In this document: positions 382 to 23,327 of the stretch, in pieces
How positions within the stretch are numbered: position 1 is the first letter of the stretch
How the letters are laid out: each line of letters starts with the position of its first letter
Sequence record: PX915676.1
Source of the DNA: a phage
Reading direction: 5' to 3' (one strand)
Length of the DNA: 64,000 nucleotides
Program-made: the position numbers and the translations under genes
The notes under the pieces: model-generated
Databases searched by the model: none
Told to the model about the DNA's origin: nothing
Seen by the model: the letters and a program-made list of their open reading frames with translations, nothing else

Positions 382-457
382 GCGCTCTTAGCTCAATGGA
401 TAGAGCAGTAGCCTTCTAAGCTATTGGTTACAGGTTCGAGTCCTGTAGGGCGCACCA
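382..457 (+). tRNA. tRNA-Arg (anticodon UCU)
   Basis: Cloverleaf folds by hand: acceptor GCGCTCT/AGGGCGC, D-arm GCTC-AATGGATA-GAGC, anticodon stem GTAGC/GCTAT with loop CTTCTAA (anticodon TCT), T-arm ACAGG-TTCGAGT-CCTGT, discriminator A and encoded CCA. Confidence 0.85.
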
Positions 458-4380: not shown

Positions 4381-4743
4381 ATGAATACACGTCCCATCAA
4401 GGGCAACGTTAATATTGAAACTCTGAACAAGGTTGCATCAAACCTCGGTGGAATGTCCAACGATGAGCTTGAGCAAGAACTTGCTTGGATTGCAAATGGT
4501 ATCAAAGTTGCTAAAGGTAAGATTGCTCGTGAGCAAAGTAATATGAAAGCTCACAAGTATATCATCCGTCGTGCAAATATGTTACCGGAGCGGGTTGTAC
4601 ATCTTGCCCGTAAGAACTACGAAAGTGCTAAAGAAGCCCTGCTTGAAGCAGAATTTCAGAAGCATCAATTTATGAACAACTATCGAAACTTCCGAGATAT
4701 TCTCTATATCCGTAAATCGATTGAGTTGATTAAAAACCAATAG
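4381..4743 (+). CDS. hypothetical protein
   Basis: AGGAG SD; 120 aa. Confidence 0.5.
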   Translation: MNTRPIKGNVNIETLNKVASNLGGMSNDELEQELAWIANGIKVAKGKIAREQSNMKAHKYIIRRANMLPERVVHLARKNYESAKEALLEAEFQKHQFMNNYRNFRDILYIRKSIELIKNQ

Positions 4744-18554: not shown

Positions 18555-18752
18555 ATGAAAAAGTGGATTGTTCGTGTACATGATAACACGACTGGAGAGT
18601 TAGTAGCTGTAGATTTTGTTAAGACTCGAGAACACGCACGTAGGGTCAAAAATCAATACAAGTCTACTTTTAGACTTAACAAGGTTACAATTGGAAAAGC
18701 TATTGTGAATAGCGAAGGTGCTTTTATTGCCAACAGTAAGGTTTATTATTAA
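18555..18752 (+). CDS. small protein, paralog family B copy 1
   Basis: 65 aa; W-x-[VI]-R, TRE-x-AR and C-terminal SKV-[YH]-Y shared with next two ORFs. Confidence 0.5.
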   Translation: MKKWIVRVHDNTTGELVAVDFVKTREHARRVKNQYKSTFRLNKVTIGKAIVNSEGAFIANSKVYY

Positions 18753-18961
18753 TGAGACCGATCACTATGAGACAATTTTGGTTAGCAAAGATTAAGTGGG
18801 TATCAGGTGGCATGACTATGACTGCACTACCCACTCGCCAACAAGCTCGAGATTTTAAAAAGACTATGCTTACTGGTGACGTGGTCAATAGTATCAGTAT
18901 CCATAAGGCCAAGGAATATTCCTCTGGTCGTGTTTATATCAGCGGAAAGGTACACTACTAA
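18752..18961 (+). CDS. small protein, paralog family B copy 2
   Basis: 69 aa; start overlaps upstream stop (TAATG). Confidence 0.5.
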   Translation: MRPITMRQFWLAKIKWVSGGMTMTALPTRQQARDFKKTMLTGDVVNSISIHKAKEYSSGRVYISGKVHY

Positions 18962-19170
18962 TGAAAAAGATGTGGGCTATTAGAATTGTTTGGGAACGTG
19001 AGCAACACCTAGGCAAAGATAATATCAAACTGTTTGAAACTCGTGAAGAGGCTCGTATTGCTAAGAAGGAGTTGAAGACTCTGATCGGAACTATTAAAAG
19101 TGTTGACATTCATCGCTGGTACGAAGACCCTAGCTCGGGTTCTTTTATGTCTAAAGTAATTTATTACTGA
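18961..19170 (+). CDS. small protein, paralog family B copy 3
   Basis: 69 aa; start overlaps upstream stop (TAATG). Confidence 0.5.
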   Translation: MKKMWAIRIVWEREQHLGKDNIKLFETREEARIAKKELKTLIGTIKSVDIHRWYEDPSSGSFMSKVIYY

Positions 19171-19242: not shown

Positions 19243-19572
19243 ATGTTAGATTTGAGTAAAGTGGCCCCGCCCACTGAAGAGATTACAAAATCCAAGGTGA
19301 TGCAACAGTTTTATCATCGTGATATGCTTGGTCGCTTTATCAAGAATCGTGATGTTGTTGCTTGGTCTATTGGTAATCAGGGATATCTGTTGAAGGTTCT
19401 TCAGGTTACAGGTTCAACTGCTAAGCGAGTTAAGGTGTATGACCCTGAAATGGGGCGTTCTAAGTCAGTAGACCCACAGAACTGCATCGTAATTACCCAG
19501 CAGGTAATGGATAATATTGCACGTAATGTTGCTAACTCAGTTGAACTTGATGGAGAAAACCCAAATGCATAA
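19243..19572 (+). CDS. hypothetical protein
   Basis: GGAGAGAG SD; 109 aa. Confidence 0.45.
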   Translation: MLDLSKVAPPTEEITKSKVMQQFYHRDMLGRFIKNRDVVAWSIGNQGYLLKVLQVTGSTAKRVKVYDPEMGRSKSVDPQNCIVITQQVMDNIARNVANSVELDGENPNA

Positions 19573-20128
19573 GAATGTCTTTGATTTACCTGAGATTGGT
19601 CGTGACAGTTATAGTATGTTAGACCGGTCCGACCTATCAATCTCTCGCCTTGAAACGATGCAAGGTATGATTAGTGGAAACAGCCTAGAACACATCCTGA
19701 GCTGCTTACAAGCTAACATGGAACTCTTGCATATCAAAGCTAAAAACTACCACTGGAACGTCTCTGGTGCAGGATTTCAGGGTGTTCATGGTATGTTTGA
19801 TGAGCTGGAAGATTACGCACGACAGGTAGGAGATCGTATTGCTGAACGTATGCGTTACCACTGTGTTAAAGTGGATGCTACAGCAGCTAACTACCTCTCT
19901 CATTCTTGGTTCTCAGAGGGTAATGCTGATCTAGACATGGACGGTATGCTCTCTGATATGTGCATGACCTTGATGTGTATTATTGAGAAGATGGATGAGT
20001 TTGATGGTGATTTAGCCACCTACCCTGTCGATCAGAGTATGCTTCAAGAAATTAATGAAGGTCTTGGCAAGTATTGCTACTTCGTCAAGAGCAACATGTC
20101 CCATTCAAGTGGTGACGTGTCTTACTAA
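19565..20128 (+). CDS. Dps-like ferritin-fold protein
   Basis: KNYHWNVSGAGFQGVHGMFDELEDYARQVGDRIAER matches the Dps ferroxidase-site region; ATG overlaps upstream stop (ATGCATAA). Confidence 0.65.
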   Translation: MHKNVFDLPEIGRDSYSMLDRSDLSISRLETMQGMISGNSLEHILSCLQANMELLHIKAKNYHWNVSGAGFQGVHGMFDELEDYARQVGDRIAERMRYHCVKVDATAANYLSHSWFSEGNADLDMDGMLSDMCMTLMCIIEKMDEFDGDLATYPVDQSMLQEINEGLGKYCYFVKSNMSHSSGDVSY

Positions 20129-20189
20129 AAACCTCCGCCCTGTCTCCTAACCCGAGGTGGGGCGAACTTATTTATAAGGATATAGATAT

Positions 20190-20369
20190 ATGTTATCAGC
20201 AATCGTATGGGGTATTTGGGCTATCTTTATTGGTGGTGGTATTTATTGGGCTTCTGGTAAGCTTATTGAAGAAACTCCTGATAAGAAAGGTGAGATTCAA
20301 ACAGCATCAACCATCATGGTTATCGTAGCTGTTGTTATCCCATTCCTGCTTCACCTCCTGACTGCATAA
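20190..20369 (+). CDS. small 2-TM membrane protein (holin-like topology, function unknown)
   Basis: 59-aa ORF below the ORF-track length cutoff; AAGGA SD; two hydrophobic helices. Confidence 0.35.
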   Translation: MLSAIVWGIWAIFIGGGIYWASGKLIEETPDKKGEIQTASTIMVIVAVVIPFLLHLLTA

Positions 20370-23318: not shown

Positions 23319-23327
23319 TAATGTATA
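23319..23327 (+). promoter_or_regulatory. TAATGTATA promoter-like motif
   Basis: Exact 9-mer 37 nt upstream of ATG 23364, one of several same-orientation copies. Confidence 0.4.

Follow-up and report, generated by a model that had tools for sequence, protein, structure and literature searches.

A Dps-family gene in the replication module of a Kuravirus

At stake at this locus is a functional question: do lytic phages have to keep Fenton chemistry in check while they replicate? The window (the whole stretch of DNA that was analyzed, 64,000 nucleotides of sequence record PX915676.1) is from a phiEco32-like Kuravirus (Gordonclarkvirinae), with about 96-98% nucleotide identity. Its single tRNA is tRNA-Arg(TCT), at 382..457 (+). 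An earlier note on this DNA had described one of its open reading frames as a phage-encoded Dps-like ferritin. If that is what the gene encodes, what might the protein do for the phage?

We found that the open reading frame and the motif that had drawn attention to it are real. The features at the start of the gene are as follows.

19565..20128 (+): coding sequence of a Dps-family mini-ferritin, from the open reading frame and its translation, PF00210, PHROG 3636 and PDB matches; orthologue of phiEco32 phi32_67 and SU10 CDS67
19552..19555 (+): GGAG ribosome-binding site, 9 nt before the ATG of the Dps gene, read from the sequence
19243..19572 (+): gp68 (phi32_68, phrog_10984), 109 aa, function not assigned; its stop overlaps the start of the Dps gene, and it is co-distributed with Dps in prolate podophages

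The coding sequence runs from an ATG to a TAA and encodes 187 amino acids with a predicted mass of 21.2 kDa, the same as the figure given for the SU10 protein found in lysates. The longer version of the reading frame, 19517..20128 with a TTG start, is merely its mechanical maximum. The start codon at 19565 overlaps the stop codon of the open reading frame before it (19243..19572; ATGCATAA), an arrangement typical of translationally coupled genes. The peptide quoted in the earlier note, KNYHWNVSGAGFQGVHGMFDELEDYARQVGDRIAER, corresponds to residues 60-95 of the protein. The first 44 residues, discussed below, are translated; homologues with as little as ~50% identity keep motifs of this stretch in their protein sequences.

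The gene is the same as that in other isolates. The products of phiEco32 gp67 and SU10 CDS67 are 99.5% and ~96% identical in amino acid sequence to the protein encoded in the window, and both are 187 aa. Their genes are in the same place, between phi32_68 and the genes for thioredoxin and ThyX, and are followed by the same hairpin. Nothing material differs between them and the gene in the window.

We scanned for promoters. No sigma-70 promoter was found on the + strand upstream of the Dps gene. The published late-promoter motif of Kuravirus is tAATGTAt. In the window there are 7 matches to TAATGTAT, compared to 2.3 expected (at 23319, 30275, 30346, 39311, 40065, 43051 and 56920). Most of these sites are on the - strand, within the structural module, and none of the seven is near the Dps gene.

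The product has the sequence signature and fold of Dps proteins

Several comparisons indicate that the product of 19565..20128 almost certainly belongs to the Dps family. The Pfam model PF00210 (Ferritin) matched with 31.1 bits (cut-off 24.5; E 2.6e-7), covering residues 55-108 only, and PHROG 3636 matched across the whole core at 2.7e-55. In a phmmer search of the PDB nearly all matches were Dps proteins, the best being Dps2 of Mycobacterium smegmatis (2e-9). We also compared a profile of 15 sequences of the phage clade to the PDB. All 53 of its matches were Dps-family proteins, with Bacillus anthracis Dlp-2 the best (5.5e-15), and with the same profile E. coli Dps was matched over residues 47-177 (2.7e-7). 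The similarity to Dps proteins is far beyond chance.

The modeled structure agrees with the sequence matches. The AlphaFold2 model has a mean pLDDT of 80.8, and values of 82-96 per 10-residue block in the core.

19685..20095 (+): four-helix-bundle core of the Dps protein, residues 41-177, from AlphaFold2; helices A (41-65), B (72-98), BC (107-112), C (125-150) and D (154-177)

The short BC helix, which is diagnostic, lies in the long crossover loop of the modeled four-helix bundle. All of the top 50 Foldseek matches in the PDB were Dps or Dps-like proteins, with target-normalized TM scores of 0.72-0.92. Dlp-2 (1jig) superposed with an rmsd of 1.1 Å and a target-normalized TM of 0.88, and E. 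coli Dps (6gcm) with an rmsd of 1.4 Å. That is, the Pfam, PHROG and PDB matches, the fold model and the metal ligands (below) fully support the proposal in the earlier note of a Dps-like ferritin encoded by the phage, and the ferroxidase site is intact.

Two related assignments were considered and rejected. A classical ferritin or bacterioferritin, or a Bfr-type 'Dps-like' protein, has an intra-subunit di-iron site, with E, ExxH, E and ExxH ligands inside a single four-helix bundle. The only ExxH in the phage protein is E53-H56 in helix A, the histidine of which is not conserved in the clade (Y or R in some members), and there were no ferritin or Bfr chains among the 53 PDB matches to the phage-clade profile. 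The model for the E. coli-type Dps equivalog (NCBIfam NF006975) gave 34.5 bits, far below its cut-off of 114, and matched residues 52-96 alone. The phage protein represents a distinct branch of the family rather than an orthologue of the host Dps.

The protein is unusually rich in methionine (15 of 187 residues) and also contains five cysteines. Helix C contains a near-invariant D131-M-C-M-T-L-x-C138 (DMCMTLxC; 19961..19984 in the window), and helix D contains KYCYF.

Dps folds were also found in viral proteins of other sizes. Several BFVD matches to the model, from uncultured Caudovirales and 290-763 aa in length, are named either 'prohead protease' or 'DNA-binding protein Dps' (examples are A0A6J7XDU5, A0A6J7WPK9 and A0A6J7WIS1). 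If these names are right, then Dps domains have been fused to head-maturation proteins, reminiscent of the ferritin-like cargo of encapsulins. A Pfam scan of eight representatives with Dps domains (204-777 aa) found Ferritin domains only, and no fusions to other domains.

The ferroxidase centre is intact

We found that the residues expected to bind iron are all in place. The residues to which the earlier note had pointed are the ferroxidase ligands H63, H75, D79, D90 and E94, and on careful alignment none of these has been lost.

19751..19846 (+): ferroxidase-centre segment, with the ligand codons for H63 (19751-53), H75 (19787-89), D79 (19799-801), D90 (19832-34) and E94 (19844-46), plus W64

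These five residues and W64 are invariant across the 15 sequences of the phage clade, which extend down to 48% identity. We also made a broad alignment of 140 sequences, consisting of the phage protein, 137 diverse representatives, and two reference Dps sequences (those of E. coli and Listeria, as we take them to be). H63, H75 and D90 were present in all 140 sequences, E94 in 139 and W64 in 137. In the sequence that we take to be that of E. coli Dps, the residues aligned with H63, W64, H75, D79, D90 and E94 are H51, W52, H63, D67, D78 and E82, respectively. An alignment to PDB entry 1dps made with HMMER (residues 56-95 of the phage protein to 44-83) independently supports the same register.

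The ends of the protein are acidic

At its N-terminus the phage protein carries an acidic, lysine-poor extension.

19565..19696 (+): N-terminal extension, residues 1-44, from alignment, charge, low pLDDT and gene lengths in relatives

In the phage-clade alignment, residues 1-44 carry two conserved islands, MH(K/N)NxFDLP and SxxRLExM. The AlphaFold2 model of this region has low pLDDT and a tentative helix at residues 19-37. The extension is absent from the Dps proteins of phages Privateer (154 aa) and SE131 (146 aa) and is specific to Kuravirus-type proteins. We considered the possibility that F[DE]LP is a shared N-terminal docking motif, and dropped it: in the six frames of the window there were only unrelated, internal matches.

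DNA binding by Dps-family proteins has been ascribed to an N-terminus that is mobile and positively charged, or to a positive surface, and Dps proteins with neither do not bind DNA (PMC1874666). The phage protein is strongly acidic, with a pI of 4.71 and a net charge of -15. Residues 1-44 contain one lysine, three arginines, four aspartates and three glutamates (net -3), and the C-terminal tail (177-187) contains no lysine and no arginine. Thus, the basic tail, which is a feature of the DNA-binding subset of Dps proteins and not of all of them, is missing from both ends of the phage protein.

Dlp-1 (1ji5) and Dlp-2 (1jig) of B. anthracis are mini-ferritins reported not to bind DNA (PMC1874666). 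Like the phage protein, they have the same ferroxidase ligands and no basic tail; the superposition on Dlp-2 extends over 135 columns, with 27% identity. The phage protein differs from both in its 44-residue acidic N-terminal extension, its 11-residue C-terminal tail and its high content of methionine and cysteine. M. smegmatis Dps2 (2z90, 4m35), which binds and compacts DNA, is the best single-sequence match and also has the best Foldseek E-value. Its alignment spans phage residues 51-176 and includes HWNV...H...DEL.D.A....D.IAERMR. In contrast to this DNA binder, the tail of the phage protein is acidic. E. coli Dps (1dps, 1f30, 6gcm) has the same fold but is only ~21% identical to the phage protein, and has a lysine-rich N-terminal tail that the phage protein does not have.

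Based on its charge and its tails, the phage protein is unlikely to bind or condense DNA. Non-canonical modes of DNA binding occur in some Dps proteins, and we infer the behavior of the phage protein from its sequence. Dlp-2, a reported non-binder, is both the best profile match and the tightest superposition, in line with the non-binding reading. The earlier note had mentioned DNA condensation as a property of Dps proteins and a possible effect on the host nucleoid; the sequence, with its low pI, negative charge and tails devoid of a basic stretch, gives no support to this idea.

The gene is a conserved and constrained part of the lineage

Among Kuravirus and the related prolate podophages, the Dps gene belongs to the core set and is one of the middle genes. 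The 4-kb neighborhood of the gene is 95-98% identical to that in dozens of phages of E. coli and Shigella. A full-length copy (at least 80% identical) is present in 98 phage records, compared to 99 that match the region at the nucleotide level. Globally, homologues are rare, and were found in 168 of 50,697 phage records. The statement in the earlier note that Dps proteins are unusual in lytic phages therefore holds for phages as a whole and fails within this lineage, where the gene is part of the core.

More distant copies, with 28-45% identity, are present in the other prolate C3 podophages (Salmonella 7-11/SE131, Proteus Privateer, and Cronobacter and Aeromonas phages) and likewise in Streptomyces and Synechococcus phages. 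Dps genes of other lytic phages (Grimontviridae, Aeromonas LAh, Streptomyces, Synechococcus, Lactobacillus plantarum myophages and the gut 'Gratiaviridae') are usually in regions for DNA metabolism. Those of the Lactobacillus phages and the 'Gratiaviridae' have been noted in the literature with the same oxidative-stress rationale, and the authors who described such genes proposed that they limit oxidative and iron damage. In a representative library of 1.84 billion proteins, only 13 clusters had E-values under 1e-10, and the sole annotated name among the nearest representatives from outside Kuravirus was 'putative DPS protein', from a Salmonella phage. The phage clade is well separated from cellular Dps proteins.

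The gene is under strong purifying selection. Compared to ECBP2, dN/dS is ~0.05, with dS saturated. The constraint is not uniform along the protein: in the same comparison dN was 0.078 for the core and 0.33 for the N-terminal extension. Phages of the lineage that retains the gene under this selection are under development as therapeutics against pathogenic E. coli.

We considered recent acquisition from the host and rejected it. In a single-sequence comparison the match to E. coli Dps was weak (E ~0.1), and the GC content of the gene (0.431) is that of the phage background (0.426 for the window). Based on its broad retention in the lineage, its constraint, its background GC content and its marginal similarity to host Dps, the gene is an old lineage gene and not a recent moron. 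By its low identity to E. coli Dps, its equivalog score far below the cut-off, and its lack of a lysine-rich tail, it is likewise not a recent copy of the host gene.

The neighborhood of the gene and a conserved hairpin

The Dps gene is in a module for replication and nucleotide metabolism. The order on the + strand is primase/helicase, exonuclease, dCTP deaminase, three small paralogues, gp68, Dps, a 59-aa membrane open reading frame, thioredoxin and ThyX. The structural genes are on the opposite strand. In Privateer and SE131 (Grimontviridae), Dps is in the same dCTP deaminase/thioredoxin/ThyX module. We searched the literature for the NADPH-oxidase activity of ThyX, and the H2O2 that goes with it, as a reason for the linkage of Dps and ThyX and found nothing usable.

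The gene that precedes Dps is nearly always found where Dps is found. By tblastn, gp68 was detected in phages of Escherichia (92, compared to 93 for Dps), Aeromonas (11), Proteus (8), Salmonella (7), Cronobacter (6) and Shigella (3), a distribution across prolate podophages nearly identical to that of Dps and covering the same host groups. It immediately precedes Dps in Kuravirus, Privateer, Cronobacter A24 and the Aeromonas phages, and in Salmonella SE131 the two are 1.4 kb apart. This co-distribution may reflect a partnership or merely conserved synteny. Pfam gave no match to gp68, and an AlphaFold model based on 14 homologues was uninformative (mean pLDDT 46.9). PADLOC models of defense and anti-defense systems had no matches to Dps, gp68 or the downstream 59-aa open reading frame.

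Upstream of gp68 are three abutting open reading frames in tandem (18555..18752, 18752..18961 and 18961..19170, all +), encoding 65, 69 and 69 aa. They correspond to phi32_71, phi32_70 and phi32_69, and each matches phrog_4939 (~2e-27). They represent a local gene triplication between the dCTP deaminase gene and gp68.

Downstream of Dps there are two features in the window.

20136..20164 (+): G+C-rich hairpin with an 11-bp stem, a 7-nt loop and a weak T-tract, 8 nt past the Dps stop, from a terminator scan and RNA folding
20190..20369 (+): 59-aa membrane open reading frame, phrog_9296, downstream of Dps

The hairpin has a folding energy of -15.9 kcal/mol (z -1.7). Comparison of phiEco32 and ECBP2 (Kuravirus and Suseptimavirus, respectively) revealed that the stem is invariant and the loop divergent. 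Because the stem is invariant even though synonymous sites in the adjacent coding sequence are saturated, the hairpin is probably functional. It is probably a terminator or a 3' element that stabilizes mRNA, and because the T-tract is weak it may stabilize mRNA rather than terminate strongly.

The position directly downstream of Dps is occupied differently in other phages. In Privateer (4398..4694) and SE131 (4411..4710) there is a gene of ~98 aa whose similarity to profiles of NrdD-like anaerobic ribonucleotide reductases is confined to their first ~100 positions (positions 4-99 of phrog_487; phrog_36488). It is a stand-alone N-terminal fragment. In contrast, the window has the unrelated 59-aa membrane open reading frame in its place.

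Published evidence for expression and for association with virions

The presence of Dps in Kuravirus was already known. The phiEco32 protein phi32_67 (ABY52868.1) has been in GenBank since 2008 as a 'DNA-binding protein' and 'member of the Dps family', and the papers on SU10 and Privateer note that the gene is conserved and expressed. In the SU10 paper, CDS67 'contains a DPS domain', is among the few genes common to all five C3 phages then known, and is placed with the middle genes. [quoted passage not shown] The sample had been precipitated with PEG only, and DNA polymerase and thioredoxin were also present in it. Because of this preparation, the detection shows expression and not association with the virion.

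The evidence from virions is divided. The Privateer paper reports that mass spectrometry of CsCl-purified virions detected about ten proteins, Dps among them, and its authors call the function of Dps unverified. In the cryo-EM study of SU10 the internal ejection proteins are gp20-24, and the Kuravirus Dps is not among them. The terms 'gp67' and 'DNA-binding' do not occur in the main text of that study, and neither these nor 'Dps' occur in its supplements. Both lines of evidence are from the literature. In the literature searched we found no biochemical or genetic study of a Dps protein from any phage, Kuravirus included.

A proposed role in chemical protection during replication

The explanation that we favor, with a probability of roughly two in three, is that the product of this middle gene is a Dps ferroxidase cage that protects by chemistry, clearing Fe(II) and H2O2 while phage DNA replicates. 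By homology, the protein is predicted to form a hollow cage of 12 subunits with 23 symmetry. The fold and the conservation of the ligands point to a 12-mer, since the ferroxidase site exists only at the dimer interface. Each inter-subunit centre would be made of H63 and H75/D79 from one subunit and D90 and E94 from its two-fold partner. Fe(II) would be oxidized there, preferentially with H2O2, and Fe(III) would be stored inside the cage. This is the mechanism described for the Dps family, in which oxidation of Fe(II) and storage of Fe(III) suppress the formation of hydroxyl radicals (PMC1874666). Both Fenton reagents would in this way be cleared from the cytoplasm, and replicating phage DNA and the neighboring enzymes of nucleotide metabolism would be protected. 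The action would be timed to the middle phase, when phage DNA replicates. The cage would matter because the host is presumably no longer able to induce its own OxyR/Dps response. Protection by the ferroxidase activity of Dps is independent of DNA binding (PMC1874666), and because the tails and surface of the phage protein are acidic, protection would be chemical and not a physical coating of DNA.

Two observations count against this model. The 44-residue N-terminal extension with its conserved motifs has no place in it, and a purely cytoplasmic role does not predict the orthologue found in purified Privateer virions.

The name under which the gene is often recorded suggests a different role, that of a protein that binds and condenses DNA, coats phage or host DNA and either shields the phage genome or compacts the host nucleoid. 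The GenBank name is 'DNA-binding protein', PHROG 3636 carries the description 'DNA binding protein', the top sequence match is a DNA-binding Dps, and the gene sits in the replication module. However, the annotation comes from homology, so that the reading rests on the name, and binding in the family needs a positive N-terminus or surface (PMC1874666), in place of which the phage protein has seven acidic residues against one lysine and three arginines at its N-terminus and no basic residue in its C-terminal tail. We consider this role unlikely. An alternative in which the protein does not stay in the cytoplasm places it in or on the prolate head, where it would be delivered with the packaged genome or protect it, with the N-terminal extension as a possible docking peptide. 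The Privateer virions, the presence of the gene in all prolate C3 podophages, the BFVD 'prohead protease' entries with a Dps fold, and the otherwise unaccounted-for N-terminal motifs are all consistent with this. On the other hand, the SU10 ejection proteins are others and its cryo-EM study does not mention gp67, the SU10 mass spectrometry was done on a sample precipitated with PEG only, and the Privateer protein, the one found in virions, does not have the extension. In addition, the gene is in the middle (replication) module on the strand opposite to the structural genes, and a cage of ~250 kDa could merely co-purify with virions. A place in the virion is improbable.

The cage might instead serve to manipulate iron, either as a transient store for metalloenzymes of dNTP synthesis or as a sink that alters iron signaling through Fur in the host, an effect on host iron of the kind that the earlier note had mentioned. 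The intact ferroxidase site would suit such a role, as would the conserved synteny with dCTP deaminase, thioredoxin and ThyX and the small gene resembling the N-terminus of NrdD directly downstream of Dps in Privateer and SE131. But no iron-dependent enzyme was identified beside Dps in the window (ThyX is a flavoenzyme, and dCTP deaminase does not need iron), no partner for iron release, such as a Bfd-like ferredoxin, was found, gp68 has no cysteine-rich motif, and the proposal is purely inferential. We regard it as highly improbable. There is also the notion, which we consider a long shot, that Dps is a component by which the prolate podophage lineage is defined and that it does more than detoxify iron, with the acidic, lysine-poor N-terminal extension docking the cage on a phage or host partner. 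The partner could be gp68, which is translationally coupled to Dps and co-distributed with it, or else the machinery of the head or of DNA packaging; docking to the latter would account for the Dps in CsCl-purified Privateer virions. The N-terminal extension and the coupled gp68 are small leads.

Names given to the gene in sequence records

The orthologue of this gene is labelled 'integrase' in many Kuravirus records in GenBank (for example EK5 H21, KM01 H26 and IME267 P0003). Other records call it 'ferric iron binding protein', 'DNA-binding protein' or 'hypothetical protein'. We considered 'integrase' and rejected it: there is no tyrosine or serine recombinase domain, and Ferritin is the sole Pfam match. 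The label is a propagated annotation error, and it could wrongly imply a temperate lifestyle for phages that are candidates for therapy. Both 'integrase' and 'DNA-binding protein' are probably wrong or misleading, and 'Dps-family ferroxidase / mini-ferritin' is probably more accurate. The IME267 protein recorded as an integrase, P0003, is an 82%-identical PF00210 protein of 188 aa.
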